Shown here piece by piece: positions 6,469 through 36,562 of a DNA stretch of 64,000 nt. Numbering within the stretch: the first letter of the stretch is position 1; the number at the start of each line of letters is the position of its first letter. The stretch lies in the NCBI GenBank assembly GCA_043804415.1, contig JAZDJA010000184.1:7630-71629 (forward strand). Reading direction: 5' to 3'. Under the pieces are notes generated by a model. That model was not told the origin of the DNA. It searched no databases and worked only from the letters and a program-made list of their open reading frames with translations. Made by a program: the position numbers and the translations under genes. Source of the stretch: Candidatus Latescibacterota bacterium (lineage in GTDB: Bacteria > Latescibacterota > 4484-107).

Positions 6469-6522
6469 GACCGCAAATCGTGGATCACAGGGCTGCGGCA
6501 AAAACCAAAAAGGAGGCACCCC

Positions 6523-7413: not shown

Positions 7414-7425
7414 GAGATCCCTCTC

Positions 7426-10607: not shown

Positions 10608-10751
10608 GACGGGCTCCGTGATGCACACCAACGCCCGCGTCCTCACGACCTTCCGTGATACCAGGCACTATTCGTGGCACGATGGCGCCTTCGGCCCAAG
10701 GAGCCGGAAGACGATCGGGGGGAGGTCTCGGTTGTGATTTGGAGGCCGTAG
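10608..10751 (+). pseudogene. 3'-terminal remnant (about 45 codons) of a third BNR sialidase-like paralog, fused directly to the stop of the upstream hydrolase gene
   Basis: nucleotide similarity to the last ~140 bp of genes 10965..12152 and 12355..13560 (...cctcacgaccttcc...gacgatcggg...tag), followed by the same conserved 3' tail and 5' leader. Confidence 0.6.
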
Positions 10752-10964
10752 TGGAGATTGGCGGCGGCTGAGAGGGCAAAGGGTCGCCTCACGGGAGGTC
10801 GCCGGACCGATGAGAACTGGGACGGCAAGCCCGTCTCAGTGGGACCAAATGAGCATGTGATGAGCATGTCAGGAAATGAGTGACGCCGCACGTAAATCTT
10901 TAGGCCACGGAGCGGCAGACCCGGTGAAAACCAGCGCAGCAATGCTGCCAAAGGAGAGAGGACT

Positions 10965-12152: not shown

Positions 12153-12354
12153 AGAGTGGCAGCGGCTGAGAGGGCAAGGGATCGCCCCACGGGAGGCCAT
12201 GTCCGGACCGATGCGGATAGGGACGGCAAACCAACAGCAGTGGGAACAAATGAGTAGGACATGGAATGAGTGATGCCGCGCGCAAATCTTTAGACCACGG
12301 AGCGGCAGAGCCGGTGAGAACCGGAGCAGTCATGCTGCCAAAAGAGAGGAAACT

Positions 12355-13560: not shown

Positions 13561-13729
13561 AGCGTGGCGGCGGCTGAGGCGGCATCCCCTCCTGAGTCCG
13601 CCCTGGCACGCGGGTCGAAACACAAACACCGAGGAACCGGCTTTCCCTTCGCGAAGCCCTAAAGATAGCGTCTCCAGTATAGCAGATTTCGAGATTCAGA
13701 CATTTGGTCTATAAAAGGAGGAACTGACT

Positions 13730-14914
13730 ATGAAACATTCAGAACACCCCATGGTGATCAGTACTTTCAACGATGCCCTCGATTGGTGCTGGTCCTATGG
13801 CAACTGGGGCAGCTCCGGAGTGGAGCGGCTGATGGAACGCTACCAGCAGGCCAATATCCAGCGGGTCTATTGGCGCGCGAACCAGGGGAGCCTTTGCTGG
13901 TGGCCGAGCAAGGTCGGCACTCCCTACCACGGCGTCCACTTGCGCCGTCCGCCGGATTTCGTCGGACGCGGTCAGGATTGGTATGCCGAAAGGGATGCAG
14001 GATTCGACACTCGTGCTTTCGACCAACTGGCTGTTGCTTGCAAGAAGGCCCCCGAATATGGCATCGATCTTTGGGTTTACTGGACCCCCTTCCTGGATGA
14101 TGACACCGGCGACGGATGGGCCGGCGATTGGGAATCGGCGCACCCGGAATGGTGGCGTGTGTTTCGCAACAAAGTGGTGTCAAATACCAACATGAGTTTT
14201 GCTTTCCCCGAGGTGATGGCCCACAAGCTGGCCCTGATGAAGGAACTCCTTCAGTACGATCTCAAAGGGATCCTCCTGGATTGCGTCCGGCAGCATTGTT
14301 TCCTCCTTGAGGAGGACGGCGCGGTTGTAGACGAGGATCTGGCCTACCTCGGCGGCTATGAGGGACCGATCGTAAACGCGTTCCAGGAGAAGACCGGCAA
14401 AGATCCCTTCGGGCTGCCCAATGCGGACGAAGAGTGGATTCAGTTCCGAGCGGATTACAATACGGAGTTCGTGCGCAGACTGCGTACCATCCTTCGCGAA
14501 GCGAAGCCGGAGGTCAAACTGGGCGCCATGGTGCGGGCTAAAGGCGCCAAATCGGGAAAGCGCATCCACCAGGGGAACGCCCTTCGGGAGATGCTGATCG
14601 ACCTTCCGACATGGTCCAAGGAGGGCTTGATCGACACCTTGCTGCAGGATTCTTACGCTCCCCCGGCCACAAGCGAGCAGCTGGTGGAACAACTCAATGT
14701 CTCGCGGTCTCAGGTGGACGCGCAGAAAATCGCGGTCGGTGTGGAAATGGCGCTGTTTGGAGAATGGGACCTCCACACCTTGGCTGCGGCCATGAAGGGA
14801 CCTGCTGCAGCCGGTGCCCGGGAATTTGCCTTCTATCAGGATACTTGTTTTGAGGATCTGAGCCTTCGACAGAACATCAATGCATGGAGAGAACTCGGCA
14901 AACTCGTAAAGTGA
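13730..14914 (+). CDS. putative glycoside-hydrolase-like TIM-barrel protein (GHL10-like), paralog of 15081..16391
   Basis: 394-aa ORF with an excellent RBS AAAAGGAGG; shares RVYWRA / FAFPEV / ILLD motifs with the downstream paralog. Confidence 0.5.
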   Translation: MKHSEHPMVISTFNDALDWCWSYGNWGSSGVERLMERYQQANIQRVYWRANQGSLCWWPSKVGTPYHGVHLRRPPDFVGRGQDWYAERDAGFDTRAFDQLAVACKKAPEYGIDLWVYWTPFLDDDTGDGWAGDWESAHPEWWRVFRNKVVSNTNMSFAFPEVMAHKLALMKELLQYDLKGILLDCVRQHCFLLEEDGAVVDEDLAYLGGYEGPIVNAFQEKTGKDPFGLPNADEEWIQFRADYNTEFVRRLRTILREAKPEVKLGAMVRAKGAKSGKRIHQGNALREMLIDLPTWSKEGLIDTLLQDSYAPPATSEQLVEQLNVSRSQVDAQKIAVGVEMALFGEWDLHTLAAAMKGPAAAGAREFAFYQDTCFEDLSLRQNINAWRELGKLVK

Positions 14915-15009
14915 GGATCGCCGTTTTCGCCCCTCTTGGGAGCGCCCGTCATCCGGGCGTGCCGTCAGGCACGATTCAGTTTAGTGCGGCAGCATGCAGA
15001 GTCCTCATG

Positions 15010-15035
15010 CCTGATCCCTGATGCCTGATCCCTGC
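15010..15035. repeat. tandem CCTGATN heptamers (3.5 copies) about 50 bp upstream of gene 15081
   Basis: cctgatc cctgatg cctgatc cctgc; the same heptamer array is found at 29065-29099. Confidence 0.7.
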
Positions 15036-15080
15036 ATTCCAGCTCCTTAGTACTCACAAACACAGAAGAAGGAAGAGACG

Positions 15081-16391
15081 ATGACAGACGGATCGAAACG
15101 CGCAATGATTCTCTCCGCCCCGCTGACGCATTCGGACTGGATGATCCACGCCGATGCCCCGGACTGGGGACCGGAGGGCGTTCGCACGATGCTCGATCAC
15201 TGCCGGGCATGTGGCTGGTCGCGAATCTACTGGCGGGTCTTCGACGCCGGCATGGCCCTGTATGCCAGCCGCCTCCTGGAACCGATGAAGTATGCCACCA
15301 GTCCGCAGCCAAACTGCCTGACCACGGGCGAACTGGCCTCCCAGGCCCCGCCGGATCTGGTGGCCCGGGCGATGAAACTCGACTATCACGGATTTGACAC
15401 GCTGGCTGCGGCAGTGCGGATCGGTCACGAACTGGGGCTGGAGATTCACGCCTGGTTGTCCATCAATGAAGACGATCACGGGTGGGGCTGGCCCAGCCGC
15501 TTCACGCAAGCGCATCCGGAGTGTCGCTGGGTGCGCCGGGATGGGCGCGCCTATCATTCGCAACTGAGCTTTGGGTTTCCCGAGGTGCGGGAATACAAAC
15601 TGGATCTGATCCGGGAGATGCTGGCCTACGAAGTGGATGGCATCTTCCTGGACTGGATTCGCACGGGCGATATCCGCGACAACCCCCGGAACGATCCACA
15701 GGGCGTGGCCAACTATGGATATGAAGCGCCGCTGGTAGAAAGCTTCCGCTCGCGTTACGGACTGGACCCCCACGAGGTGGAGAACGGGGATGAGCGCTGG
15801 GTTCGGTGCCGCGCTGAGCCGATCACCGATTTCATGCGGACGGTTCGAAATGCGCTCGATCAACACCCTCGCCGGATAGTATTGGCAGGGATGGTGCATC
15901 ACTGCTGGGCATATCGGGGACTTCAGGAAGAGGGCTTCATCGATGGTGCGCTGCGGGGCGTCCTGTGTGATATTCGCACGTGGGCGCGCGAGGGACTGGT
16001 GGACGAGCTGGTGGTGGGCGGCTATTATATGAAAGACGGCACTCCGGAATCCGGATACCGCTGGCTGGAGGAGGAGACCGAGGGCCGGGTGGCGCTGTGG
16101 CTGTATGGCTGGGTTCCGGAGAGCACCGAGGACTTCGAACGGGATCTGACTCTGGCGCGCAGGCTGGGGGCCCGGCAGTTATTGTTCTGGGAGGCGGACT
16201 ACATTGACATGCGGCCCGAACCGCAGCGCGAGCAGATCATGACGGATGCGGGAATCAACCTGCTCCGGATGAAGAAGCTAGAGGAGTTACTGGGAGGAGC
16301 GCTTCCAAGGCTCTGCGTGAAAGAACCAGTTTGCCGAACAGTTTCAAGCCCGGACAAAAAGGGTAATACTATGGAACCCATTGAACACTGA
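15081..16391 (+). CDS. putative glycoside-hydrolase-like TIM-barrel protein (GHL10-like), paralog of 13730..14914
   Basis: 436-aa ORF; conserved RIYWRV, FGFPEV and FLDW motifs shared with 13730..14914. Confidence 0.5.
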   Translation: MTDGSKRAMILSAPLTHSDWMIHADAPDWGPEGVRTMLDHCRACGWSRIYWRVFDAGMALYASRLLEPMKYATSPQPNCLTTGELASQAPPDLVARAMKLDYHGFDTLAAAVRIGHELGLEIHAWLSINEDDHGWGWPSRFTQAHPECRWVRRDGRAYHSQLSFGFPEVREYKLDLIREMLAYEVDGIFLDWIRTGDIRDNPRNDPQGVANYGYEAPLVESFRSRYGLDPHEVENGDERWVRCRAEPITDFMRTVRNALDQHPRRIVLAGMVHHCWAYRGLQEEGFIDGALRGVLCDIRTWAREGLVDELVVGGYYMKDGTPESGYRWLEEETEGRVALWLYGWVPESTEDFERDLTLARRLGARQLLFWEADYIDMRPEPQREQIMTDAGINLLRMKKLEELLGGALPRLCVKEPVCRTVSSPDKKGNTMEPIEH

Positions 16392-16483
16392 AAGACACGG
16401 AAACACACCGAAAACCCATTAGCTTCCTTCAGGAAAGGATGCTCTCATTCAGTGTTCCCATGATCCACACAGGAGAGCCGTTC

Positions 16484-17641
16484 ATGTCCAAATGCCCGTA
16501 TCAGCAGTATGATCTGTGGCGCGTTGCGGAGAAGCGCACCATCTGTGACCTGGCGGACAGTGGTCCGGGCCTGGCAAAAACGCAGGCAGGCCATCTGCTG
16601 GCCTTCTTCGGCACCCCGCACGGCACGGAGCAACACGACGCCATGGCCGAAGAGGTCGCTGCCCTGGGACCTGCCCGCGTCATGATGAGCCGCTCCACGG
16701 ATGGCGGTCTGACGTGGTCTGAGCCTTTGGCGCTTCCCGCACCGAATGGACTCGATGTGCACTACGGCATGCCCAGTTGCGCCCTCGCACTGCCTTCCGG
16801 GAGGATCGTCTTGGTCGTGCGCTCCCATGAACACGGCGCGGACCGGGACGACTGGTTTTTTGCCGACCATCATGCGTACCACTCCGACGACGACGGTCAG
16901 AACTGGACCATCGGCAAGGCCATTGACCGGGCTCCTGCCGTGGGCAACCGCGCCTATGCGGGTGGGGAAATTCAGCAGATGGGTGGGATCCTGATACTCG
17001 GGTATCAGGGGACGCTCTCTCCCGAGGAGCACGATGCCAACACCTACAGTGCGTTTTTCTACCGCTCCTATGATGAGGGGCTCACCTGGGAAGATCCCTC
17101 TGTGCTCATTCGGCCGCAGGGACACTGCAAACTGGCGGCGGAACCCAGTCTCGCCGTCCTGGAGGATGGCCGATGGATCGCTCTGGTGCGCTATCATGGA
17201 CCGGAGGACTGTTGTCGCACGGTCCGCATCGAAAGCAGCGATGAGGGACGCACGTGGTCGGAGCTGGCCCATCTTTTCGTGGGCGGAATGGGCTGCCTGC
17301 GGAGCCTGCCGGGCGGGGGCTTGATGGTCAGCCACGTGACCACGGCCGGCATCGTGGTGCGCTTCAGCTACGACGAAGGCTGGAACTGGACGCGGGAGGT
17401 GATGGCCTATGACATCTGGGCGGGAGGTCACTACCGAAACGGTGCGGCCTGGAACCAGTCCGCGCTGGTGATCGACGACGACACGATCCTCTGCGGGTAT
17501 ACCTCCGTGGCGCCGGACGATCCGAACAAGGACCTCTATTATGGGGCACGAAAGGCCGAATGGGGACTTGCTGCACGGATTCGTTTCCTCCGTCGTCAGC
17601 GGGATCGATCCCTGACTGTTCCCTTGGAGGCAGGAGCGTAG
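16484..17641 (+). CDS. BNR/Asp-box sialidase-like propeller protein
   Basis: Asp-boxes SRSTDGGLTWSEP, SDDDGQNWTIG, SYDEGLTWEDP, SSDEGRTWSEL; start 16484 chosen for the AGGAGAG RBS. Confidence 0.7.
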   Translation: MSKCPYQQYDLWRVAEKRTICDLADSGPGLAKTQAGHLLAFFGTPHGTEQHDAMAEEVAALGPARVMMSRSTDGGLTWSEPLALPAPNGLDVHYGMPSCALALPSGRIVLVVRSHEHGADRDDWFFADHHAYHSDDDGQNWTIGKAIDRAPAVGNRAYAGGEIQQMGGILILGYQGTLSPEEHDANTYSAFFYRSYDEGLTWEDPSVLIRPQGHCKLAAEPSLAVLEDGRWIALVRYHGPEDCCRTVRIESSDEGRTWSELAHLFVGGMGCLRSLPGGGLMVSHVTTAGIVVRFSYDEGWNWTREVMAYDIWAGGHYRNGAAWNQSALVIDDDTILCGYTSVAPDDPNKDLYYGARKAEWGLAARIRFLRRQRDRSLTVPLEAGA

Positions 17642-17909
17642 AAGTTGGCAAGTGGTCAGTGGGTGAGTAGTGAGTGGTGTATGCAGCAACGAGCTTGGAA
17701 GAATCCCTAACGCACCGGAAAGCGTACCATGAAGAAACTGCTCGAGAGTATTGCACACTTTGGAGCTGCGTTCTGCGCAGATGCGATGAATTTCTCGGCT
17801 TATCGAAACCGTTTCCTGTCACCGATCAGTGACACGGGCGTGCCATCTGCAGGGTCACCGCAAAAAAACAACCGGCCAATGGACACCCCCATACCTGAAG
17901 GAGTGTAAG

Positions 17910-19700
17910 ATGAGCAACGCGCAGGACCGATCCATACAGGCACATGACGTAACCATCAAGGAGATTTACCACCCGAAGGTACGTCCGGGGTATGCGTGCT
18001 GGACCAGCCTGTGGCGGGCGCCAACCGGGGAATTGCTCCTGGCATTCGCAGAGAAGCGGCGCGCTCCCAATCCCTCTTACCGACCCATTCCGCTGGATTT
18101 CTATGAATCCATGGCCCTGCCGATCAAATACCAGGCCTCCTTCTGCAACGGGTCACCGGATCTGTTAGATGAAAGCGTGATCATGCGTTCTAGGGACGAA
18201 GGGGCCTCGTGGGAGGAGATCGGAAGAAGCGGCACAGGCGGACTGATGAATGTCTTTGGCTATGCTTCCTTGCCCGACGGCACCATCCTCCGGGGGATCG
18301 ACACGGCGTATCTGTGTTTTTCTCAGGACGACGTTCCGGTTACCGGCATTGAACAATCCACCGATGGGGGAAATACATGGGTCCCAAAGTCCAAACTGCT
18401 GGAACCGGACTTCTGCGGGTGCATCTACCGGCTCAAACGCCTGCATGACGGCACCCTGGTGGCCTTGTGCATCTACTCCGTGCCCTTTGGGCCGGGAAAG
18501 GAGTCCAAACAGCGGGGCGGCAGCAAACCGAACATGGTCAGTACGAACATGGCAGGGCTCTGGACCTCCGGGGATGACGGGGCAACCTGGACTGGACCCA
18601 CGATCGTCCTGCCCGGGATCTCCGCGCCCGAACCGGATTTTGCCGAATTGCCCTCAGGGGATTTGCTCATCCTCAACTCCTCCGTACAGCACGGACCCCA
18701 GATGCGTCAGAAGATCCATCGCAGGAAAAGCGGCTTGCTGCCTGCCGCCATGTACCGTGTGGTGGACGGCACGGTACCGGAAACCGTCTGTGCCACTGGA
18801 ACCGGTCTGCTGGTGGGTGCCAGCAGAGGGGGCACGTATGTCTGCTGCAATGATGAGGGCGCCACATGGAAGGAGATCTCGAGCATGCCGAGGTGTGAGT
18901 ATCAACCCTTCATGATCGAGGGAATCGAGGACCGACTCCTGTGCGCATGGCATAAGCATGGAGACTGCGCATTTGGAGAACACCACCAGTTTGTGGGCAT
19001 GCACGCTTTCTCTCTGGATGACTCCAAACTTCCGGAGGCCACGCAACTGGTGCTCACTCGAGACCAGGATCGGGCGAAAACGCACTACACTAACTCCTAC
19101 ACGGCGCACCTTTCCTCAGGTGGGAAGGACCTGCCGAACCGGGAAATCCGTTTCCACACCCAGATGCGTTACCGGGACACCTACGACCTCGCCCCTCCCG
19201 CACCGGAGTCCAGAGAAATCGTCAAAGTGACGGACGGACACGGCAAGGCCCGGTTTCAGATGAGCGAGCTCTACCCGGATATAGCACGCGAGCTCAATAT
19301 CCACCAAGCCTTCGAAACCAAGGCCTTCTTCGCTCCCGGGGAGGGGGAACCCTTTGGTGCGGCGGAGAGTATGCAATATCAATCTTACGCTGTCACCCCC
19401 GAAATCGGAACGCCCAACAGCTGCCCTCTGTACGTGGCCGGGTGCAAGCTTTTTGTGACACCCGAAGTGATTCAAGCAGTTCCGGAAATTAAGGAACTAC
19501 TTCAGAAGATCGGTACCCCCAGAACAATCGACGCGCAAGAAAGCAAGCGAGTTCTGGGTTTATCCGATGCGCGCTTCGAAGCGGTCGTGGACTATCTGGC
19601 CCAGGAAAACGTGCTGGACCGAAAACCGGATGGGGACCGATGGCGCTATGATCTTTCCGGAGGATCGAGCGAAATCGAGATTCCGGATGACTTCGTATAG
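17910..19700 (+). CDS. BNR/Asp-box sialidase-like propeller protein with a ~200-aa C-terminal extension of unknown function
   Basis: Asp-boxes SRDEGASWEEIG, STDGGNTWVPKS, SGDDGATWTGP, CNDEGATWKEI; RBS AAGGAG before ATG 17910. Confidence 0.7.
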   Translation: MSNAQDRSIQAHDVTIKEIYHPKVRPGYACWTSLWRAPTGELLLAFAEKRRAPNPSYRPIPLDFYESMALPIKYQASFCNGSPDLLDESVIMRSRDEGASWEEIGRSGTGGLMNVFGYASLPDGTILRGIDTAYLCFSQDDVPVTGIEQSTDGGNTWVPKSKLLEPDFCGCIYRLKRLHDGTLVALCIYSVPFGPGKESKQRGGSKPNMVSTNMAGLWTSGDDGATWTGPTIVLPGISAPEPDFAELPSGDLLILNSSVQHGPQMRQKIHRRKSGLLPAAMYRVVDGTVPETVCATGTGLLVGASRGGTYVCCNDEGATWKEISSMPRCEYQPFMIEGIEDRLLCAWHKHGDCAFGEHHQFVGMHAFSLDDSKLPEATQLVLTRDQDRAKTHYTNSYTAHLSSGGKDLPNREIRFHTQMRYRDTYDLAPPAPESREIVKVTDGHGKARFQMSELYPDIARELNIHQAFETKAFFAPGEGEPFGAAESMQYQSYAVTPEIGTPNSCPLYVAGCKLFVTPEVIQAVPEIKELLQKIGTPRTIDAQESKRVLGLSDARFEAVVDYLAQENVLDRKPDGDRWRYDLSGGSSEIEIPDDFV

Positions 19701-19775: not shown

Positions 19776-20960
19776 GTGCCTGCAAACGTGAAGGTAAAGG
19801 TCGTGTCACATGGGGAATCCGTGACGGATCCGTTGGATTGCCGGATGCCCATCGTCGGGCCCGGCATCAACCAGCCGGATCCTTTTCCCGGGTATGGCGG
19901 ATTTGTGGGCTTTTCATCGCCGGCCCGGCTGAGGAACGGCACCTGGTTGGTTGGCTTTTTGGCCGGCTATTCCCACCTACACGGTCCCTCTCCGATGGAC
20001 TACTATACAGAGGAAGAGTTGGCGCATGTCCGGGAATCCGGATATGCGTTGGAGAATTACTACGCTCCCACAGGGGCCAGAGCGATGTTCGTTCGCTCGA
20101 ACGATGAGGGGAAAACCTGGTCGAAACCGGCGACGCTAATCGATACGCCCGCAAATGACGCCCATCCCTTCTTTCTGGAATTACCCACGGGCACGATCCT
20201 CTGCTCCTTCTTCACCGCGTGGGGGTGCCATCACAGAAATGATCCCGCCCTGGCCTATCACGTCCGTTTCATCCGCTCGTTTGATGGGGGATTCACGTGG
20301 GAGCAGGAACCCCGGCTCCTTCCGTCTCCTTTTCTGGCCGAGGAGACCGAGGCCCCCATGTTGCACCTCGAGGAGGGTGCGGTGCTGATTGCCGTTGATG
20401 GAGATCCCCGCGAAGGCGGGCCGCAACAGGCAGCGATATTCCGCACCATGGATCAGGGGGACACATGGGAACTCCTCTCCATCGTAAAGGCCGCCCATGA
20501 ACTGTCGGAGCCGGCCATCGCCCAATTGCCCGACGGCCGACTGGTTATGATCGCGCGTCCCAAAGGAGCGATCTCCTGGTCCGAGGATTGCGGACGGACG
20601 TGGACGCAGCCCCAGAGCTTTGGAATACCGATGTACGCCCCCAGCCTGCAGGTGTTGCAGGACGGAAACCTGCTCTGCCTGCACGGATCATACAGCCCTG
20701 GGCATGGCGCTCTGCGCGCCATTTTGAGCCCGGACGGCGGAAAGACATGGCGGGCACCGGCGCCGGACCATGGGTTCCTGGTGGATCGCACTTACGGGTA
20801 TGGCAAGGGAATGCTCCTTCCAGATGGCTCCCTGTTTATCTCCTATATGAGCACAGGCGGCCATGCTCCCCAGGATGCCCGAACCAACTGCCTCTGGTCT
20901 GTACGCCTGCGTGTCCGCGCCGACTGCGCCGGCATCGATCTTTTGCCCGCAGCCCGGTAA
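19776..20960 (+). CDS. BNR/Asp-box sialidase-like propeller protein
   Basis: Asp-boxes SNDEGKTWSKP, SFDGGFTWEQEP, TMDQGDTWELL, SEDCGRTWTQP, SPDGGKTWRAP; GTG 19776 follows an AAGGAG RBS (an in-frame ATG at 19704 is the alternative). Confidence 0.6.
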   Translation: MPANVKVKVVSHGESVTDPLDCRMPIVGPGINQPDPFPGYGGFVGFSSPARLRNGTWLVGFLAGYSHLHGPSPMDYYTEEELAHVRESGYALENYYAPTGARAMFVRSNDEGKTWSKPATLIDTPANDAHPFFLELPTGTILCSFFTAWGCHHRNDPALAYHVRFIRSFDGGFTWEQEPRLLPSPFLAEETEAPMLHLEEGAVLIAVDGDPREGGPQQAAIFRTMDQGDTWELLSIVKAAHELSEPAIAQLPDGRLVMIARPKGAISWSEDCGRTWTQPQSFGIPMYAPSLQVLQDGNLLCLHGSYSPGHGALRAILSPDGGKTWRAPAPDHGFLVDRTYGYGKGMLLPDGSLFISYMSTGGHAPQDARTNCLWSVRLRVRADCAGIDLLPAAR

Positions 20961-20986
20961 CCCCATGCCCTTTCAAGGAGGAACGC

Positions 20987-22114
20987 ATGAGAGAAAAAGA
21001 GCGCTTTTTGGATACGCTGCAGTTCAAACCGGTGGATCGGGTTCCCTTTATGGAATTGGGCGCATGGAACCAGACCATCGCCCGATGGGTGGGGGAAGGA
21101 TTGCCGGAGTCGGCTGCCAACTTCCGTTTCATGGAGGGCAATGCCTACTTCGGGCTGGAGGCGTACGAGAGCGCTCCCATCGATGGGGTTGGGCCCCATC
21201 CCCCCTTTGAGGAAAGAACGCTGTCCGAGGATGACCGTTATATCAAGTTCACCGATACCATGGGAAGAACCCGCCTGGCGCTCAAGGAGGGAACGGTAGA
21301 CGGCCAGCGAACCAGCATGGACAGCTATGTGGACTTCCCGGTCAAGAACAGACGGGACTTTCTAAACATGAAGAAGCGCTACGAGGAGAGTGAGTCCGTC
21401 CGGTACCCGAAAGACTGGGAGGAGATCAAAGAAAGGCTGAACAAATCCACCAGGCCGATCACCCTCCTCAATCCGCTGGATGGCACCTTCGGCTGCTACA
21501 GCATGCTCAGAAACTGGATGGGCACGGAGAACCTTTCCTATCTGTTTTACGACGACCGACCGCTGATCATGGAATGCCTGGATTTTCTGACCGATTTCTT
21601 CATTCGGGTCGTGGAGAAAGCCGTCACAGAAGTTCCTTTTGACTTCTACATGATCCACGAAGATATGGCAGGAAAGGGCGGGCCCCTCGTGTCCCCCCAG
21701 CTTTTCAGGGAGATATTCACGCCCTTTTATAGACGCCTCATCGACTCCCTGAAGTCGCACGGCGTAAAGCTCATACTCGTGGACACGGATGGCGATTTCG
21801 AAGCGCTGATCCCTGCCTTTCTCGAGGCCGGTGTGGACGGATTCAGTCCCATCGAACGGGCATCTAATATGGACCCCATCAGATTGCGGAAACAGTATGG
21901 CAACGCGTTTTCTATGCTCGGAGGCATCGACAAGCGGGTCCTGGCAAAGGGGAAAAAGAAAATAACAGAGGAGATCGAAAGAAACGTGCTCCCGCTCATC
22001 GAAAAAGGCGGGTATATTCCGATGGTGGATCACGCCGTACCGCCGGACGTTTCGCTGGATCATTTCAAGTACTACCTGGAATTGAAATGGAAGGCCATTG
22101 ATCATGCGTGGTGA
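20987..22114 (+). CDS. uroporphyrinogen decarboxylase (URO-D) superfamily protein (MtaA/CmuA-like fold), inside a glycan operon
   Basis: 375 aa; RBS AAGGAGG; N-terminal ...LQFKPVDRVPFMELGAW... and central ...YMIHEDMAGKGGPLVSPQLFRE... are typical of URO-D-family proteins. Confidence 0.7.
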   Translation: MREKERFLDTLQFKPVDRVPFMELGAWNQTIARWVGEGLPESAANFRFMEGNAYFGLEAYESAPIDGVGPHPPFEERTLSEDDRYIKFTDTMGRTRLALKEGTVDGQRTSMDSYVDFPVKNRRDFLNMKKRYEESESVRYPKDWEEIKERLNKSTRPITLLNPLDGTFGCYSMLRNWMGTENLSYLFYDDRPLIMECLDFLTDFFIRVVEKAVTEVPFDFYMIHEDMAGKGGPLVSPQLFREIFTPFYRRLIDSLKSHGVKLILVDTDGDFEALIPAFLEAGVDGFSPIERASNMDPIRLRKQYGNAFSMLGGIDKRVLAKGKKKITEEIERNVLPLIEKGGYIPMVDHAVPPDVSLDHFKYYLELKWKAIDHAW

Positions 22115-22191
22115 GGACGTGTATTCCCTGATCTGCGAGAGAACGATTTGCGGGAAAGACCGCTGACATCTCTTTGAAGGAGGAGACCGAG

Positions 22192-23883
22192 ATGAACCCA
22201 TATACTGCCTGCCAGAACGAGCTGGTTGAGATAACGCTTACTTCGGACAGGAGCTATCCGGACCCGTTCAATGACGTCGAGCTGGATGCCCTGATCGTAA
22301 GCCCGGATGGAATCAAAGCGATCATACCGGCCTTCTGGGCTGGGGGGACGACATGGAAGATTCGGTATGCGTCCCCTTTGGTTGGAAAACACCCGTTCCG
22401 GACCCGGTGTTCGGACCCAGAGAATACCAGTCTGCATGACCTGAGAGGAACCATCGAGGTATCGCCCTATTCGGGGGAGAACCCGCTACTCCGGCACGGT
22501 GCGCTGAAAGTGAGTCCGAGCCGAAAGTATCTGGAGCATGCCGACGGCACCCCTTTTCTGTGGCTGGGGGACACGTGGTGGTATGGATTGGCCGAAAGAC
22601 TCAAGTGGCCCGAGGAGTTTGGGGAACTCGTGCAGGACAGAGTCTCAAAAGGCTTCAATGTGGTACAGCTTGTGGGGGGCATGCTTCCGTATTTCACAAA
22701 GTTCGACAACTGGATGGCCAATGAGGCCGGACATCCCATGGATGAGGATTTCAAGACCGTCAATCCCGCCTATTTTGACATGGCGGATCGCAGAATCAGC
22801 TGTCTGACAGCAGCCGGGATCGTCCCGTGCATCCTCCCCGCCTGGGGCTATTTCCTGAAACTTGCGGGAATAGAAGGGATGAAGAAAATCTGGCGTTATA
22901 CGGTGGCCAGATGGGGCGCTCATTGTGTCATCTGGTGCCTGGCGGGTGAAGTGAGAATGCCCTATCCCCTCTATCCTTTGGTGGAGCATCCGAAGGAATG
23001 GGCGGAGGCCATACGGGAACTGCAGGACGGCTGGACAGAGATCATCAAGTATCTGAGGGACCTAGATCCCTATCACCATCCGGTGACTGCGCATCCCAGC
23101 CCTGCGGATGCCAGCTATTCCTCCCGCGACCTGTTTGACGACCCTTCCCTGGTCGATATCGATAGGCTTCAAACCGGTCATCTGGGCAACATGACCCAGA
23201 ATGTTTTTGAGTATACGCTGGAGAAACTGAACAAAGCCTTGTCCAATAGGGACGTAAAACCTGTCGTGAATGGAGAGCCCAGCTACGAAGGCGTAGGCGG
23301 CGGATTCTGCGGGGAGGCCACGCAACGATTTCTGTTTTGGACTCATCTCTTGAAGGGGGCAGCGGGTTACACCTACGGATCGGCGCCGGTGGTCTTTTTC
23401 ACGGACAGGGACAGTAGGTATAGTAAAGGCGACATGCTGGGATCATGTGATGCCACCTGGCAGGAAGGCGCCTACCATTTCCCGGGATCCGCGCAACTTG
23501 GATTGGGCAAGAGATTCCTGGAGCAATTCGACTGGAGCCGATTTGAGCCGCATCCGGAATGGGTCGAGCCGCACGCCAGCCCGTCCGATCCCTTTTCCCC
23601 CTACTGTGCCGGCATACCGGGAGAGGTCAGAATCATCTACCTCCCCTCCTTTGTGATGCCCAAAGGGAGAGACAGTTCCTACGAGAAAATACACGTCCTG
23701 GGCATCGAGGAGGACGTGGCCTATCGATCCTATTTCTTCAACCCCCGAAACGGCGATATCCTCAACAGAACCGAGGTCACGCCTTCAAGGGACGGAAAGT
23801 GGACCCTTTTCCCGGAGGGACACCTTTTCCTGGCCGTTCCCAATCTGGGGGATTGGATCCTGGTGCTGGAAGCCAAAAACTGA
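22192..23883 (+). CDS. putative glycoside hydrolase with DUF5060 (Ig-like) plus DUF4038 (TIM-barrel) architecture, GH140-like
   Basis: 563 aa; RBS GAAGGAGGAG; architecture recognised by motif pattern only. Confidence 0.5.
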   Translation: MNPYTACQNELVEITLTSDRSYPDPFNDVELDALIVSPDGIKAIIPAFWAGGTTWKIRYASPLVGKHPFRTRCSDPENTSLHDLRGTIEVSPYSGENPLLRHGALKVSPSRKYLEHADGTPFLWLGDTWWYGLAERLKWPEEFGELVQDRVSKGFNVVQLVGGMLPYFTKFDNWMANEAGHPMDEDFKTVNPAYFDMADRRISCLTAAGIVPCILPAWGYFLKLAGIEGMKKIWRYTVARWGAHCVIWCLAGEVRMPYPLYPLVEHPKEWAEAIRELQDGWTEIIKYLRDLDPYHHPVTAHPSPADASYSSRDLFDDPSLVDIDRLQTGHLGNMTQNVFEYTLEKLNKALSNRDVKPVVNGEPSYEGVGGGFCGEATQRFLFWTHLLKGAAGYTYGSAPVVFFTDRDSRYSKGDMLGSCDATWQEGAYHFPGSAQLGLGKRFLEQFDWSRFEPHPEWVEPHASPSDPFSPYCAGIPGEVRIIYLPSFVMPKGRDSSYEKIHVLGIEEDVAYRSYFFNPRNGDILNRTEVTPSRDGKWTLFPEGHLFLAVPNLGDWILVLEAKN

Positions 23884-23989: not shown

Positions 23990-24661
23990 ATGAATACCCT
24001 CTTGGAAAAGCTCAAAGAGATTGACACCCCAACCTTATCCAACGCCATCGAGAAACTCGCGGTGCGCAACCGGATCAGTGGATTTGCCGATCGCCGTCTC
24101 AGATGCCTCTTTCCCGAACTGGGGATCATGTGCGGGACCGCCGTAACCGCACAAGTGGAGAGTGTCGCCCCGGATACACTGGGAGGATTGGATGAGGGAT
24201 TCCTGGCGCTTTGCGAAGCATTGGAGACATATGAGGGCCCGAGCGTCATCGCGTTTCAGGAGATCAGTGGCCATCCCGATTTTGCGGCCCACTGTGGGGA
24301 AGTGATGACCACCATCTTTCAGAAGCTGGGGGGCATCGGCCTGGTCAGTGACTGCGCGGTAAGGGATATGGCGGAAGTCCGATCGCTGAAATTCCATTAT
24401 TTCGCCACCGGACAGGTGGCCAGCCATGGCTCGTTTCGAGTCGTGCGCGCCCAGGTGCCGATCACCGTATGCGGGCTGCAGATTGCGCCAGGCGATCTGC
24501 TCCACGGCGACGAAAACGGCTTGATCCTGGTGCCGGCCGAAGGGCGGGACCAACTCCCCCGTCTGGCTGACGAAGTCCGGCAGGCAGAATCCGCCTTGTT
24601 GGATTTTGTGAACAGCGAGAGATTTACCGTCGAAGGGTTGCGAAAACGCGTCACCCACTGA
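23990..24661 (+). CDS. RraA-family protein (RraA / 4-hydroxy-4-methyl-2-oxoglutarate aldolase / oxaloacetate decarboxylase-like)
   Basis: 223 aa with the swivelling beta/beta/alpha fold pattern (…GDLLHGDENGLILVPAE…); RBS TAAGGAG. Confidence 0.75.
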   Translation: MNTLLEKLKEIDTPTLSNAIEKLAVRNRISGFADRRLRCLFPELGIMCGTAVTAQVESVAPDTLGGLDEGFLALCEALETYEGPSVIAFQEISGHPDFAAHCGEVMTTIFQKLGGIGLVSDCAVRDMAEVRSLKFHYFATGQVASHGSFRVVRAQVPITVCGLQIAPGDLLHGDENGLILVPAEGRDQLPRLADEVRQAESALLDFVNSERFTVEGLRKRVTH

Positions 24662-24799: not shown

Positions 24800-25400
24800 A
24801 ACCGCCAGTGAAGCTCCCCGCCCAAAGGGCGGGGCATCTACTTGCTAACACCAAACAGATCAAGCTGGGCGGGAATTTTCTCCTCCCGCCGATGATATTG
24901 GATATACCGCTTGATGGTCTCAGAAGTCACCTTGTTCCCCACTGTGCGAGCAAAATACCCATCTTCCCAAAGCTCCCCACCCCAGAGCTCCTTTTTTACT
25001 TCGGGATGAGTCTGGAAAATCCGACTCGCAGAAATACTCTTCAATATCCCAACTACCCTCGCTATCGAATATCGAGGCGGAAAAGACAAAAAAATGTGCA
25101 CGTGATCTTCTGAAACTTCAAGCTCTACAATGTCAAAACCAAAATCCTCAGAAATCTGGCAAAATAACGCCCGAACATCCTCGCGAAGGTCTCCTCGTAG
25201 AATCCATTTCCAGTATTTCGGGGCCCATACCAGATGATACTGAGCTTCATAAACTGCATGACTCGTCCGCCTTATTGCCATCGTATACCTACGAATCTTA
25301 ACACCCTAATCCATCTTATCAGTCAGCATACGATAACAAATCTGCTTGCCTTTGGCAAGCAGAACTTTTCCTCCCCTTCCAAAGGAAGGGGTATCCAAGT
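24800..25400 (-). mobile_element. IS200/IS605-family insertion sequence (tnpA only, about 600 bp) with subterminal hairpins
   Basis: tnpA ORF plus hairpins at 24816-24834 (CCCCGCCCaaaGGGCGGGG), 25342-25362 (CTGCTTGCCtttGGCAAGCAG) and 25373-25391 (CCCCTTCCaaaGGAAGGGG); ends are approximate. Confidence 0.8.
24838..25281 (-). CDS. tnpA: IS200/IS605-family Y1 (HUH) transposase TnpA
   Basis: 147 aa with the HUH motif SEDHVHIFLSFPP and a C-terminal catalytic Tyr region typical of IS200 TnpA. Confidence 0.9.
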   Translation of the reverse strand: MAIRRTSHAVYEAQYHLVWAPKYWKWILRGDLREDVRALFCQISEDFGFDIVELEVSEDHVHIFLSFPPRYSIARVVGILKSISASRIFQTHPEVKKELWGGELWEDGYFARTVGNKVTSETIKRYIQYHRREEKIPAQLDLFGVSK

Positions 25401-25412: not shown

Positions 25413-26473
25413 ATGAATGAACTCTCCTCCCGGGAACTCATGTGCCGGAGCATGCGTCGTATGCCCACGGATCGCATCCCCACCATGCCCCAGCTTTGCC
25501 AGGATACGCCCATCCGAATCTACCACGAAGACTGCGGGGATTGGATAGACAGAACGGCCCGGTGTCTGGAAGTGCCTTCCACTGCCCATGAGTATGTCAT
25601 CCGACTGGCCAAACAGATCCACTGCGATGGATTGCGGCTGTTTGTCCTTCCGGATCCCATGGAGGTGCGTCGTGTGGGAGACGACCTTTTTGGGGTCAGC
25701 CCTTCGGGAGAGAGGATGGGGAGAGTGGATCTTTTCGGCGGCGGACAACTGGTGCCGGACAGGCCGCATTCACCGATGAGAAACTGGAGCAGCTTCGATC
25801 TGCCCGAAATCGTGTTCCGAAAAAGTTCGTCGCGTCCAGTCCGAGCGGGATCACGATGAACACCTACAGCGTGTTGCGCGGAAGAGAACAGGCCATGATC
25901 GATTTCTTCGAGCGCCCGGATTTTGTGCGTGCGGCCATGGATCTGCAGGCGGAGGCCGCCATTCGCCTCGGAGAAAAGCTCATTCCCACGGGCATTGATG
26001 CGTTCTACATCGGCGATCCCGCTGCCAGTGGCAGCATCATTAGCCCCCGGCATTTTGAGGCTTTCTGCCTCGCGCCCTACCAGAAATTCTGTCGCCATTT
26101 CAAGGGCCGGGACATGCTACTTTATATCCACATCTGCGGGAACTCCAATCCGATTCTGGATATGCTGTCGGATACGGGCGCTGATGCCGTGGAGCCGCTG
26201 GATCCCTTGGGCGGCGTTTCCGTGGCCGATGCGAAATCGCGCATCGGGGAGAAAGTGGCGCTTATGGGAGGGGTCAACACGCTCACCCTCTCCCGGGGCA
26301 CTCCGGCCCAGGTGCGCGCAGAGGCGATCCAAAAGTGCCGGGAAGGCGGCCCTTCCGGGTACATCCTGGCGGCAGGGGATATGGTACCCCCGGATACCTC
26401 TCTGGAGAACTTACAGGCTCTGGTGGATGTCAGCACCCAGAGCCTCTGGAAAACGGATGCAAGCGCCCTGTAA
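25413..26473 (+). pseudogene. URO-D-superfamily protein, disrupted by a -1 frameshift near 25856 and sited about 10 bp downstream of the IS200 end
   Basis: the N-terminal part (25413..25859) and C-terminal part (25856..26473) together align to the intact paralog 20987..22114; there is no RBS before ATG 25413. Confidence 0.6.
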
Positions 26474-26656: not shown

Positions 26657-26838
26657 AACAAGTTTATGTTTTCTTGTGCTACAAGAGCGAAACTCAGGGG
26701 GTGTAGCCTTTCGATCACCGCGAGACGGAAACAGCACGAAGTGCCCATCCTATGAAAACGACATCCTCTATGATGGGAAGAGCAACCATGACCCAGGGGG
26801 CACGCGGATCGAAGGGACCCCTTATCCAAAAGGAGCGC

Positions 26839-28032
26839 ATGACGGTACACACAAAGAGCTGGACAGGCTATGCGATTGGCGTGATGATCCCCTCGTCGTT
26901 GTGCGTCGCCATTCTGTCCGTCGGATCCATTTCGATTTTGGAAGCACTGAGTTTGGGACTGGACAAGGGGGGATTGTTATTTGGGGCGCTCAACGGAGGT
27001 TGCCTGCTCGCCTATGTGTTTGGGGGCGGATTGTGCGATCGCTTTGGCGAACGCCCGATGCTCTTCGGCGGAAGCCTCATCTGCGCCGGCGGCGCCCTGC
27101 TTTGCAGGGGGGCCCATTCCTTTCTGCCGCTTGGGTTCGGGATCTTCTTGCTGGGTATCGGAAGCGGGTTTCTCTGGCTGGCATCTGTGGTGCTCCTGAA
27201 TCATCTCCATCAGGAGCGACGCCGGTTGGCATTGGGGGGATCCCAGATGGCCATCGCCATGGCCTGTGTAATCGGACCTCCGGTCATAGGGGTGCTCATT
27301 CGGTGGCACGACTGGCGCATGCTCTATGCGATCCTTGCGGTGTATATGATTGGGATGGCGCTTCCGCTGTATCTGCTTCGCTTTCCCACTTCCCCTTCCC
27401 GTGAGCACGAAAAATCCCGCCTCATCGACATCGGACTTTTTCGGGAGCGGCGATACGGGCTTTTGAACCTTTGCGCCATCCTGCACACCGGCGCCGAGGT
27501 GGGCATCTCTTCCTGGGTGTGCCTTTACATGGCCAGGCGCTTTGGAATGTCCCAGGTGTCGGCCAGTCTCGGGCTGATGCTCTATGCCTTGGGGATGGTT
27601 CTGGGGAGGGCGGTTCTCAGCAAACTCCCGGAGCGCTATTCGGATGTTTTCGTGCTGAAGGTTTGTGCATTGGGTTCGGGATGTTTCGTTTCTCTTCTTT
27701 TCCTCAACGGAAACTATGTCGTTTCGCTGGCTATTTTTGCAGCGATCGGGTTTTTTATCGGGGGCGATTGGCCTGCGATGCTGATGTATGCAGGCAGACA
27801 CTTTCCCGAGCGAACCGGCACGGCAACCGGACACTTGTCACTCAGTGGCAGTCTGGGGGGCATCCTCTCCCTTCCCCTGATGGGACTGATCTCCGAGCAT
27901 TTTGGGATTGGCGCGGGGATGGGCATACCCCTGGTCTCTCTCGCGGGTATGTATATTGCCGTCAGCGCACTCGGACGGACAGATTTGGGTAAGCACACAG
28001 AACAAACGCAAGTCGCAGATAATTCAAAGTAA
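26839..28032 (+). CDS. MFS-family transporter (12-TM-like)
   Basis: multiple hydrophobic helices and a G-rich MFS motif; start 26839 chosen for the AAAGGAG RBS. Confidence 0.75.
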   Translation: MTVHTKSWTGYAIGVMIPSSLCVAILSVGSISILEALSLGLDKGGLLFGALNGGCLLAYVFGGGLCDRFGERPMLFGGSLICAGGALLCRGAHSFLPLGFGIFLLGIGSGFLWLASVVLLNHLHQERRRLALGGSQMAIAMACVIGPPVIGVLIRWHDWRMLYAILAVYMIGMALPLYLLRFPTSPSREHEKSRLIDIGLFRERRYGLLNLCAILHTGAEVGISSWVCLYMARRFGMSQVSASLGLMLYALGMVLGRAVLSKLPERYSDVFVLKVCALGSGCFVSLLFLNGNYVVSLAIFAAIGFFIGGDWPAMLMYAGRHFPERTGTATGHLSLSGSLGGILSLPLMGLISEHFGIGAGMGIPLVSLAGMYIAVSALGRTDLGKHTEQTQVADNSK

Positions 28033-28115
28033 CGGAAGGTACCTAGCACAAAACCACAAACTGTCCCCTGATATTTCCATACGGGAAGCGATCCGGGGGC
28101 AAGAAGGAGCGATCC

Positions 28116-28982
28116 ATGGCGTTACATAAAGTGGAAGGCATTACAAGCAACCAGGGAGCGGAAAACTGGAAACCGCGCATGAAAGCCGCTTTGGCAGAAA
28201 AACGCGCTCAGTTTGGGTGCGCGGTGAATTTTGGTCATTCGGTTCCGGTGGAGATCGCCGGGTATGCGGGATTTGACTGGGTGTTCATCCATTTTGAGCA
28301 CGGATCGGTATCCGTGCCTCAGGCGGAGACGATGACCTTGGCAGCCCGGCTATCCGGCACGGCGCCCATCTGGCGCCTCAACGCGCTGAACCCGGGGGAG
28401 ATCAAACGCGCGCTGGATCTGGGCGCAGAGGGGATCATCATCCCGCACGTCAAAAGCGCGGAGGATGCCGAAGAGATCGTGAAAGCCGCCTACTATCCGC
28501 CCATGGGGATGCGTGGCCTCGGCAGCAGACGGCCCATTCAGTTTGGCATATTGGATGCCCGGGAGTATTTCAAGGTGGCCAACCAGAGTACGGTGGTCTG
28601 TATGATGATCGAAGACCACGAGGCCATAGAGGACATCGAGCGCATCGTGGAAGTGCCGGGGATTGACGTGTTTAATATCGGCACATGGGATCTGTCCAAG
28701 TCTCTGGGGGTGCCCATCGAAACGAGACATCCGAAGGTACTGGAAGCGATCGATCGCGTATTGGCAGCAGCGCTCCCCAAAGGGATCACCGTGGGCGTCC
28801 CGCCGGAATCCCCGGAAGATGCCGCTTACTGGATGGGCAGAGGCGTGCGCTTTTTCGAGAGCGCCTCTGCAGGGGGACTAATGGTGCAGGCTGCCGTAGA
28901 TCATCTCACGTCCTTCCGGGGTGCGGTTGAGGGAACTTCCGATCAGAACCAGGATGGCAAGAAAAAGGGGATGTGGGGATAG
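28116..28982 (+). CDS. HpcH/HpaI-family 2-keto-3-deoxy sugar acid aldolase
   Basis: 288 aa class II aldolase pattern (…HVKSAEDAEEIV…, …MIEDHEAIEDIERI…); RBS GAAGGAG. Confidence 0.8.
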   Translation: MALHKVEGITSNQGAENWKPRMKAALAEKRAQFGCAVNFGHSVPVEIAGYAGFDWVFIHFEHGSVSVPQAETMTLAARLSGTAPIWRLNALNPGEIKRALDLGAEGIIIPHVKSAEDAEEIVKAAYYPPMGMRGLGSRRPIQFGILDAREYFKVANQSTVVCMMIEDHEAIEDIERIVEVPGIDVFNIGTWDLSKSLGVPIETRHPKVLEAIDRVLAAALPKGITVGVPPESPEDAAYWMGRGVRFFESASAGGLMVQAAVDHLTSFRGAVEGTSDQNQDGKKKGMWG

Positions 28983-36508: not shown

Positions 36509-36562
36509 CGGGAGATGCTCGTTTCCTTCTTTCCGATGCTATCGTTTCGATTGGAGAAACCC

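Follow-up and report, generated by a model that had tools for sequence, protein, structure and literature searches.

A URO-D-superfamily protein with a rebuilt putative metal site, encoded among glycan-catabolic genes of a Candidatus Latescibacterota bacterium

The focal gene of this study, which lies in a 64,000-nucleotide stretch of Candidatus Latescibacterota DNA (the whole of which is referred to here as the window), encodes a member of the URO-D superfamily that is neither HemE nor an MtaA-type methyltransferase. The family to which it belongs is a large, so far uncharacterised clade (448 clusters at 50% identity, E<=1e-30; 533 loci among GTDB species genomes), with hosts that include Planctomycetota, Armatimonadota, Spirochaetota and Bathyarchaeia and are for the most part anaerobes. 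We favour the reading, with a probability of about one half, that the protein is a corrinoid-independent metal-dependent enzyme of the UroD/MetE-like superfamily, from a clade specialised for carbohydrate catabolism. A preliminary description of this DNA had suggested that the URO-D family was recruited to carbohydrate catabolism, a role that it considered not established; adjacency of the family to glycosidase and sugar genes recurs in more than 15 phyla, in support of recruitment, and no published carbohydrate role for URO-D-superfamily proteins was found in the literature.

The focal gene belongs to an array of cytoplasmic sugar genes that spans 24 kb and runs in one direction (Table 1). 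Both its coordinates and the Pfam matches agree with its earlier placement, with a BNR_2 gene ending 26 bp ahead of it and a gene for a DUF5060 protein starting 77 bp behind it. Neither gap contains promoter-like or terminator-like sites, and signal peptides are absent from all three proteins. The BNR_2 gene begins with GTG and has GAAGGAGA ahead of its start, the focal gene begins with ATG and has AAGGAGGA in the corresponding position, while the ATG of the third gene (at 22192) directly follows GAAGGAGGA. The GH140-like assignment of this third gene reflects the presence of both the PF13204 catalytic domain and the N-terminal DUF5060, and by this domain match its product is a candidate apiosidase. 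The upstream part of the array carries five further BNR_2 genes and one weak BNR-like gene, two MR_MLE enolase-superfamily dehydratases, a 2-Hacid_dh gene, an SGL lactonase, a GFO_IDH_MocA dehydrogenase, two GHL10 genes and a 714-aa protein of unknown type. These neighbouring Pfam families bear out the view that the focal gene is embedded in a glycan or sugar-acid island.

Table 1. Positions of the focal gene and of surrounding features in the window
Feature	Coordinates	Strand	Basis
Upstream co-directional array	60..19700	+	Pfam scans
BNR_2 (sialidase-like beta-propeller) gene, directly 5' of focal gene	19776..20960	+	PF13088 E 3.6e-23
Focal URO-D-superfamily gene	20987..22114	+	375 aa; PF01208 E 1.9e-17
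DUF5060 + apiosidase-like (GH140-like) gene	22192..23883	+	PF16586 E 2.7e-11, PF13204 E 1.2e-60
RraA-like aldolase/decarboxylase-family gene, closes co-directional array	23990..24661	+	PF03737 E 1.3e-21
IS200-type Y1 transposase	24838..25281	-	PF01797 E 3.6e-39
Hairpin, 10-bp stem, listed with IS200-type transposase	25341-25363		
URO-D paralogue 2, MtaA-like	25413..26473	+	PF01208 E 2.3e-33 for C-terminal ORF
MFS transporter + HpcH/HpaI-family 2-keto-3-deoxy-acid aldolase	26752..28982	+	PF07690 E 3.8e-36, PF03328 E 6.1e-31
URO-D paralogue 3, motif K-H-T-D-G	36515..37651	+	PF01208 E 6e-31

Three PF01208 genes lie within 16.7 kb and one of them is frameshifted (three copies in 17 kb, one a pseudogene, had been noted), but a local expansion is not supported: identity among them is just 20-25% over the C-terminal halves (23% between paralogue 3 and the focal protein), so that they represent different subfamilies or distant paralogues rather than recent copies. 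Paralogue 2 keeps the H-I-C-G zinc motif and scores 115 bits against PRK06252, under the cut-off; one frameshift somewhere in 25700-25860 splits it into two overlapping frames, both open over 25700-25859, and could mark either a pseudogene or an assembly error. Paralogue 3 lies directly 3' of a class II tRNA-synthetase-like gene, amid housekeeping genes in this window, and forms its own conserved family (homologues at 60-85% identity) that in other genomes sometimes adjoins GHL6, GH4 or GFO genes. The focal gene is the only one of the three placed between glycosidase genes.

The PF01208 score of the focal protein (63.7 bits against a gathering score of 23.9) places it in the superfamily, with a match confined to residues 173-365, and its AF2 model (pLDDT 95) has the URO-D barrel fold, matched by Foldseek with probability 1.00 to 4ay7, 1r3y and 2inf; the best matches, MtaA 4ay7 and UROD, align with TM about 0.6 at 13-16% identity. 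HemE/UROD (1r3y, 2inf; TIGR01464) shares the fold (TM 0.6-0.7), and its C-terminal half aligns with the focal protein (hhalign probability 90%), pairing His349 with the L-G-H-G histidine and D315 with the GN-x-D-P aspartate. The N-terminal half is not alignable, the hhalign match to E. coli HemE spanning residues 185-369 only, and the TIGR01464 score is 18.3 bits against a cut-off of 302.95. HemE carries its substrate-binding arginine motif, PVW-x-MRQAGR, in this N-terminal region; the focal protein reads VPFMELGAWNQT there, with MELGAWNQ in place of MRQAGR. By this score and the missing motif it does not cluster with bona fide HemE; such clustering would have overturned the preliminary description. 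HemE in addition lacks a metal site, and the context of the focal gene is glycan catabolism rather than tetrapyrrole synthesis. MtaA/MtbA (4ay7; TIGR01463, NF040654) is the best structural match (Foldseek E 2.5e-11, TM 0.59-0.65), with the same barrel and the same metal-ligand positions, but is only 15% identical to the focal protein, which has an extra beta-rich insertion (residues 60-116). Scores against the models of MtaA/MtbA/CmuA-type MT2 enzymes are 27.5-45.9 bits, compared with cut-offs of 235-600 (TIGR01463, NF040654, NF041608, NF004889).

In the focal clade the zinc ligands of these MT2 enzymes are replaced. The His-x-Cys...Glu...Cys site of MtaA and MetE becomes Asp266-x-Asp268...Glu290...Asp348-His349, a replacement invariant in the family: the MtaA H-I-C-G motif aligns with focal D266-T-D268-G, the distal Cys is substituted, and D348-H349 align with the L-G-H-G position of HemE, while Glu290 is, judging by spacing, presumably the glutamate of MtaA and MetE. 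The full signature of the clade reads E225-D226 / D266-x-D268-G / P288-x-E290 / D315-K316 / D348-H349. These residues (E225, D226, D266, D268, E290, D315, K316, D348, H349), together with R139 and R175, recur in 243 or more of the 258 family proteins, among which identity falls as low as 31%, and in almost every one of the 69 genome loci; E23, D112, R139, R175, E225, D226, D315 and K316 are the further invariant acidic and basic residues around the site. From residue identity and alignment position we infer that the clade binds a divalent metal (Mg, Mn, Fe or a non-thiolate Zn). MetE (1u1h, 3bq6) is a distant structural match (E about 1e-4) of the same clan with the same four-position metal site, but it is a double barrel whose His-Cys-Glu-Cys zinc alkylates homocysteine, and the focal protein lacks those cysteines. 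Positions 90, 94, 96, 172 and 224 form specificity subtypes that track the partner gene, and the focal subtype has two additional arginines, R94 and R96.

In other genomes, family genes adjoin and often overlap genes for glycosidase-like proteins (ADP_ribosyl_GH, GH2, DUF6259, GH38), many of the pairs overlapping by 4 bp. ADP_ribosyl_GH lies no more than four genes away in 15 of the 69 scanned loci, mostly as the immediate neighbour, and GH2 occurs in 10 loci and DUF6259 in 6, with L001, L003 and L007 in addition. The cultured species Subdoligranulum variabile has a member, 31% identical, whose gene shares 4 bp with a GH38 gene. An alternative setting combines the family gene with a rhamnulokinase-like kinase and with lactonase and dehydrogenase genes; in Spirochaetota the family gene comes after genes for a DeoR regulator and a sugar ABC transporter, overlaps the gene of a rhamnulokinase-like FGGY kinase, and has two Amidohydro_2 genes and an SDR gene behind it. 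Rhamnulokinase-like, FucI-like, RhaI-like and Lra1-like genes give the loci a 6-deoxyhexose flavour. Because orthologues and close relatives in other phyla again adjoin glycosidase-like or sugar-catabolic genes, the adjacency of the focal gene to glycan genes is more than chance. The partner genes are heterogeneous across loci, and action on a glycosidase product is a generalisation over them.

In the favoured reading the focal protein would act in the cytoplasm as a TIM-barrel member of the UroD/MetE-like superfamily that retains the metal position of the methyltransferase branch, exchanges the soft, thiol-activating zinc ligands for a hard Asp-x-Asp...Glu...Asp-His set, and works without a corrinoid protein. 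Its substrate would be a sugar or sugar acid supplied by neighbouring cytoplasmic exo-glycosidases (here the BNR_2 and GH140-like proteins; in other genomes GH2, DUF6259, ADP_ribosyl_GH or GH38), and its product would enter a nearby-encoded dehydrogenase, lactonase, dehydratase and aldolase route, or a ketose-kinase route. The extra arginines R94 and R96 suggest that the substrate of the focal subtype is probably anionic (a uronic, ulosonic or aldonic acid). The likeliest specific chemistry, which we propose tentatively and consider doubtful, would be breakage of a C-C bond in a keto-acid sugar with the help of the metal, either through decarboxylation or through a retro-aldol reaction. Simple metal-dependent decarboxylation requires a beta-keto acid, and no enzyme that would supply it was identified. 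It also counts against the explanation that a full route of dehydrogenase, lactonase, dehydratase and aldolase is already encoded in the window, in addition to the RraA-like and HpcH aldolases, and leaves no obvious gap.

Two other readings appear improbable, to a similar degree. The first is that the protein is a corrinoid-dependent O-demethylase of the MT1 type, acting in anaerobes on sugar methyl ethers such as 2-O-methyl-fucose, 3-O-methyl-rhamnose or 4-O-methyl-glucuronate. The anaerobic hosts and the 6-deoxyhexose flavour of the loci are consistent with such an activity, as is the occurrence of an MttB-family gene and the MtaA-like paralogue in the same genome. The zinc of MtaB polarises a C-O bond, and a hard metal could do likewise; a sugar alkoxide, however, leaves far less readily than the phenolate of known substrates, and the family gene also occurs in simple operons for monosaccharides, alongside ABC transporter and kinase genes. 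The superfamily does contain MT1 demethylases and dehalogenases (MtvB, OdmB, VdmB, MtoB, CdmB) that cleave C-O or C-halogen bonds in anaerobes, some of them without need of zinc (PMC13222342), but these are set apart by description, with hydrophobic, aromatic-lined pockets in place of the highly charged pocket of the focal clade, and their genes are syntenic with those for a corrinoid protein and an MT2 enzyme (PMC13222342). Neither the window nor any of the 89 related loci showed a protein with the corrinoid-binding motif DxHxxG...SxL...GG, a pterin methyltransferase or an activase, most of these loci being MAG fragments with flanks of 6-10 kb, from which distant partners would escape; Pfam-annotated contexts held no corrinoid-protein (B12-binding) gene, their sole B12-binding match being a radical-SAM enzyme in locus L003. 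The absence of these partners, together with the loss of the thiol-activating zinc site, disfavours corrinoid-dependent demethylation; demethylation of a modified sugar had been suggested at the outset, with decarboxylation as the other option. The adjacent corrinoid partners that would have explained the context differently were not found.

The second envisages a metal-dependent aldose-ketose isomerase or epimerase, which would ready the released sugar for an adjoining ketose kinase. The overlap with a rhamnulokinase-like FGGY gene in 3 of the 69 scanned loci (L013, L023, L035) fits the canonical isomerase-kinase gene order of xylAB, araAB, rhaAB and fucIK, and the seven carboxylates, one His and one Lys of the site resemble binuclear sugar isomerase sites, which include a D-x-D pair. 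Against this, a RhaI-like AP_endonuc_2 gene is already present in the same Spirochaetota locus and a FucI-like gene in the Bathyarchaeia loci, the kinase is absent from most loci, and several active-site arginines suggest an anionic substrate. Somewhat less probable still is a hydrolase, either a new TIM-barrel glycosidase whose strands 4 and 7 would end in the acid and the nucleophile, respectively, or an esterase or deacylase that depends on a metal and removes a sugar substituent. Placement among glycosidase genes (GH2, GH36, GH38, DUF6259, GH140-like) would suit it, and in the AF2 model invariant E225 ends strand 220-225 while D315 lies just past the end of strand 309-312; D315 is nevertheless conserved superfamily-wide (the HemE GN-x-D-P motif) and hence is not a family-specific nucleophile, the weak Foldseek matches to Cwp19/GHL10 and amidohydrolases reach TM 0.25-0.3 only, and a glycosidase fits poorly in an operon of monosaccharide ABC transporter and kinase. 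Finally, a genuine haem-pathway decarboxylase, as the NCBI label ('uroporphyrinogen decarboxylase family protein') might imply, or an unrelated gene in the island by chance, given that CAZyme-rich genomes make accidental GH adjacency fairly likely, is effectively refuted by the HemE equivalog score (18 versus 303 bits), the motif loss and an adjacency that recurs across phyla with 4-bp overlaps, the expectation for ADP_ribosyl_GH alone being well under one locus if copies per genome are few.

The focal clade probably performs an undescribed step in sugar breakdown, as its residues and gene neighbourhoods suggest. With considerable reserve, we raise the possibility that it and probably sister clades such as that of paralogue 3 form a new UroD-superfamily class performing a corrinoid-independent step of glycan catabolism; in bacteria as well as in Bathyarchaeia, its subtypes would then pair with different glycosidases. 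Candidate reactions would be the decarboxylation of acidic sugars, their retro-aldol cleavage, or the removal, without oxygen, of a sugar substituent such as a methyl ether. Thousands of genes in many phyla of glycan degraders, including sediment Bathyarchaeia, gut Clostridia, and marine Planctomycetota and Kiritimatiellae, bear the label "uroporphyrinogen decarboxylase family protein", which wrongly suggests haem synthesis or methylotrophy. Should the enzyme prove to strip methyl ethers from sugars anaerobically, this would bear on how methylated sugars of algae and plants are used by anaerobes. If the clade is a distinct sugar enzyme paired with glycosidases, its rebuilt metal site would clearly exemplify the repurposing of a thiol-alkylating zinc barrel for oxygen chemistry, and current pathway maps, like CAZyme and PUL predictions, would lack a recurring step of polysaccharide catabolism.

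The focal URO-D-like gene lies in a co-directional array made up of six clear BNR_2 (sialidase-like β-propeller) genes, one weak BNR-like gene, two GHL10 genes, two enolase-superfamily (MR_MLE) dehydratases, a 2-hydroxyacid dehydrogenase, an SGL lactonase, a GFO_IDH_MocA dehydrogenase and a 714-aa protein of no known family. Gaps of 26 and 77 bp, as given in the preliminary description, separate it from the flanking BNR_2 and GH140-like genes; neither gap contains a promoter-like or terminator-like site, and AAGGAGGA-type ribosome-binding sites precede the focal and GH140-like genes. Signal peptides are absent from the BNR_2, focal and GH140-like proteins, so that the trio forms a cytoplasmic processing module. 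The BNR_2 paralogues (one examined, without signal peptide) alternate with MR_MLE dehydratases, the lactonase and dehydrogenases, an unusually dense concentration of cytoplasmic sialidase-like propellers. Neither Pfam nor NCBIfam gives a significant match to three large proteins of the glycan island (714, 623 and 679 aa), save a weak BNR_2 match for the 623-aa protein. None of the three matches the DUF6259 or ADP_ribosyl_GH partners found at other loci; they are candidates for new glycosidase-like families.

Features of the window and their positions
Feature	Position	Strand	Remarks
Co-directional sugar array	60-24661	+	all convincing genes on this strand
BNR_2 paralogues	60-20960	+	six clear, one weak, within 21 kb
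714-aa protein	8463-10607	+	
623-aa protein	17829-19700	+	
BNR_2 gene	19776-20960	+	3′ part of array
Focal URO-D-like gene	20987-22114	+	3′ part of array
Segment matched by designed β-trefoils	about 21230-21346		
GH140-like gene	22192-23883	+	DUF5060 + apiosidase-like (PF13204); 3′ part of array
RraA-like gene	23990-24661	+	last gene of array
Homopolymer of ~11 C	24708-24718		intergenic
IS200-type Y1 transposase	24838-25281	-	PF01797, E 3.6e-39
Hairpin	25341-25363		perfect 10-bp stem; just upstream of transposase start
URO-D paralogue, copy 2	25413-26473		PF01208; frameshift-split; adjoins transposase
679-aa protein	29132-31171	+	
URO-D paralogue, copy 3	36515-37651		PF01208
MttB-family gene	44545-46041	+	PF06253, E 5e-75; uninterrupted
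935-aa protein	48826-51633	-	DUF362 + two-component-regulator propeller repeats (Reg_prop); adjoins CBM9-like gene

The focal protein has a barrel of the URO-D type but belongs to neither the HemE nor the MtaA branch. Clustering with HemE was looked for and is rejected, since the protein scores 18 bits against the HemE NCBIfam model (cut-off 303), hhalign aligns it with E. coli HemE over residues 185-369 only, and VPFMELGAWNQT stands in place of PVW-x-MRQAGR, the substrate motif of HemE. The MtaA/CmuA, MtaA, MtbA and PRK06252 models give 28-46 bits against cut-offs of 235-600, and PDB sequence searches return only marginal HemE and MtaA matches, both with the focal protein and with a 41-member family profile (E 0.006-0.19 for the latter). 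The best solved structural matches of the confident AlphaFold model (pLDDT 95) are MtaA (4ay7) and UROD (TM ~0.6, 13-16% identity), with MetE a distant next. Model scores, alignments and structural matches thus secure the URO-D fold while excluding membership of either branch. Designed β-trefoils (Phifoil, Symfoil; phmmer E 1e-4 to 0.04) match residues 82-120, a ...DGTVDG(Q/T)R... segment within a family-specific β-rich insertion; this match is probably due to chance, as the threefold DGTVDG repeat of the designs amplifies the score.

With MtaA and MetE the focal protein shares a barrel carrying a predicted four-position metal site on its C-terminal face, while it lacks the defining features of MtaA, MetE and HemE. 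In the alignment to MtaA, V-D266-T-D268-G falls on the zinc motif H-I-C-G; Glu290 is spaced like the glutamate ligand of MtaA/MetE, and D348-H349 coincides both with the histidine of the HemE L-G-H-G motif and with the position of the methyltransferases' distal cysteine. Fifteen residues (W34, R139, R175, E225, D226, D266, D268, G269, P288, E290, G312, D315, K316, D348 and H349) are kept in at least 243 of 258 family proteins, with identity down to 31%, and in nearly every one of 69 genome loci; the AlphaFold model places them all at the C-terminal ends of barrel strands or immediately beyond. Alignment and conservation therefore indicate that the metal position known from the methyltransferase branch has been retained with altered ligands, the predicted set changing from a thiolate-rich zinc site to all-oxygen plus histidine in a highly charged pocket.

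The URO-D-like gene recurs across genomes as a partner of genes for cytoplasmic exo-glycosidase-like proteins or of operons for sugar kinase, lactonase and dehydrogenase, and the pairing often involves translational coupling. Among eight Pfam-annotated contexts of close orthologues, DUF6259 stands directly upstream in three independent ones, and GH2 either precedes the gene, overlapping it by 4 bp, or follows it directly. The eight also contain sulfatases, MR_MLE + 2-Hacid_dh pairs resembling those of the window, and a BNR gene that forms a pair with a URO-D paralogue. One Spirochaetota MAG carries an operon that runs from a sugar ABC transporter through a DeoR regulator, the URO-D-like gene and an FGGY kinase (nearest in similarity to rhamnulokinase) to two Amidohydro_2 genes and an SDR gene; its locus also holds RhaI-like, Lra1-like and fuculose-phosphate-aldolase-like genes. 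Genes were then called in 69 GTDB loci and neighbours clustered within four genes on each side: ADP_ribosyl_GH proteins of about 640-700 aa, mostly immediate neighbours, occur at 15 loci, GH2 at 10, further URO-D paralogues in tandem arrays at 9, GFO_IDH_MocA at 9, aldo-keto reductase at 7, DUF6259 and FucI-like genes at 6 each, sulfatase at 5 and FGGY kinase at 4. One of the three glycosidase-like families is nearby at 28 or more of the 69 loci, and a recurrent sugar-related family at no fewer than 42. The recruitment to glycan catabolism proposed in the preliminary description is real and general; the analysis confirms what that description observed and supports its interpretation in part.

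The commonest immediate neighbour, the ADP_ribosyl_GH partner (for example at loci L028, 3949-5985, L021, 7168-9279, L033, L053 and the Bathyarchaeia loci L054-L063), carries its ADP-ribosylglycohydrolase domain in the C-terminal half, the N-terminal ~350 aa having no Pfam match. At L043 (3621-11426), L095 (4817-8095), L075 and L061 two to four divergent URO-D-like paralogues stand in tandem, and such arrays often alternate with large glycosidase-like genes (DUF6259, URO-D, URO-D, ADP_ribosyl_GH, URO-D), suggesting repeated glycosidase + URO-D-like modules. Apparent gene fusions at L077, L024, L084 and L081 are long upstream-open ORFs without an extra Pfam domain and were set aside as start-codon artefacts; a convergent 260-280 aa neighbour at 8 loci is a coiled-coil protein without family and is uninformative.

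Substrate-pocket subtypes follow the partner gene, residues 90, 94, 96, 172 and 224 varying as blocks. The focal type, D-R-R-S-H, accompanies DUF6259, GH2 and kinase/lactonase operons, and BNR_2 in the window; H-I-T-S-F lies downstream of a bacterial ADP_ribosyl_GH gene; D-R-R-W-N occurs in Bathyarchaeia with a divergent ADP_ribosyl_GH gene and with GFO_IDH_MocA and FucI-like genes; and G-I/V-H-S-F is found beside GH2 or DUF6259. Such a distribution is consistent with a single chemistry acting on several related substrates.

The family is large. A word-indexed search returns 3657 homologues (the top 120 at 54-65% identity), an exhaustive search of 50%-identity representatives gives 448 clusters at E<=1e-30 and 2289 at E<=1e-10, and two family-specific peptide patterns locate 533 loci among GTDB species genomes. 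Of these 533, the best 80 are all MAGs, from Spirochaetota, Planctomycetota, Armatimonadota, Kiritimatiellae, Verrucomicrobiota, Latescibacterota, Gemmatimonadota, Actinomycetota, Chloroflexota, Omnitrophota, Bacillota, Bathyarchaeia and others; only 3 records of a plasmid collection match. A cultured carrier, Subdoligranulum variabile, has a member at 31% identity (locus L091, 8001-9002), whose gene overlaps a GH38 α-mannosidase gene by 4 bp alongside sugar ABC permeases. Full-text literature searching found no published description of the clade and nothing linking the family to glycans, the UroD-superfamily papers PMC10418091 and PMC13222342 being confined to corrinoid methyltransferases.

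To speak of three copies in the window, as the preliminary description did, is misleading: the three proteins share only 20-25% identity over their C-terminal halves, and the genes are thus distant paralogues. Elsewhere the copy-3 family shares the sugar-gene tendency of the focal family (GHL6 upstream in one case; GFO, GH4 and three tandem URO-D genes in another), and copy 3 itself lies among housekeeping genes in the window and in a related Latescibacteria contig. The IS200-type element, flanked by the RraA-like gene and by the frameshifted, MtaA-like copy 2, may lie at the edge of a rearrangement within the island. Just before it, after the RraA-like gene, the C run is a possible assembly-error hotspot, which bears on whether the nearby copy-2 frameshift is real.

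We infer that the focal-family enzyme binds a hard divalent metal and acts on a sugar or sugar acid released by the partner enzyme. For the focal subtype the substrate would be anionic, to judge from R94, R96, R139, R175 and K316, and an anionic substrate agrees with both the sialidase-like BNR_2 neighbours and the island's genes for sugar-acid pathways. The single best guess, at a probability of about 0.25-0.3, is that the metal helps to cleave a C-C bond in a keto-acid sugar, either by decarboxylation or by a retro-aldol reaction. The window encodes a complete oxidative route and two aldolase-type genes, so no pathway step is obviously missing. Isomerisation or epimerisation preceding a ketose kinase is a less probable reaction.

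Corrinoid-dependent O-demethylation, one form of the demethylation raised in the preliminary description, is comparably improbable. Known UroD-superfamily methyltransferase genes adjoin genes for a corrinoid protein and a second methyltransferase (PMC13222342). Adjacent corrinoid-dependent partners had been set beforehand, beside clustering with HemE, as an observation that would count against recruitment to the glycan island; a six-frame scan for the DxHxxG...SxL...GG motif finds no credible corrinoid protein in 89 loci or the window, and Pfam annotation of the whole window and eight contexts finds none, the sole B12-binding match being a radical-SAM enzyme at locus L003. Demethylation is disfavoured accordingly. 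Separately, the window holds an MttB-family (trimethylamine methyltransferase-like) gene that scores 330 bits with TIGR02369, below cut-off. It is free of in-frame amber codons, lacks a corrinoid-protein partner in the window, and probably encodes a non-pyrrolysine quaternary-amine methyltransferase. This gene and the zinc-motif-bearing copy 2 make corrinoid methyl-transfer chemistry probable in the genome; nothing ties the focal gene to it. Hydrolysis is the least likely of the candidate reactions, among which the evidence does not firmly discriminate. The focal family is best described as an uncharacterised clade of the UroD superfamily, associated with carbohydrates and set apart by a catalytic signature of its own.
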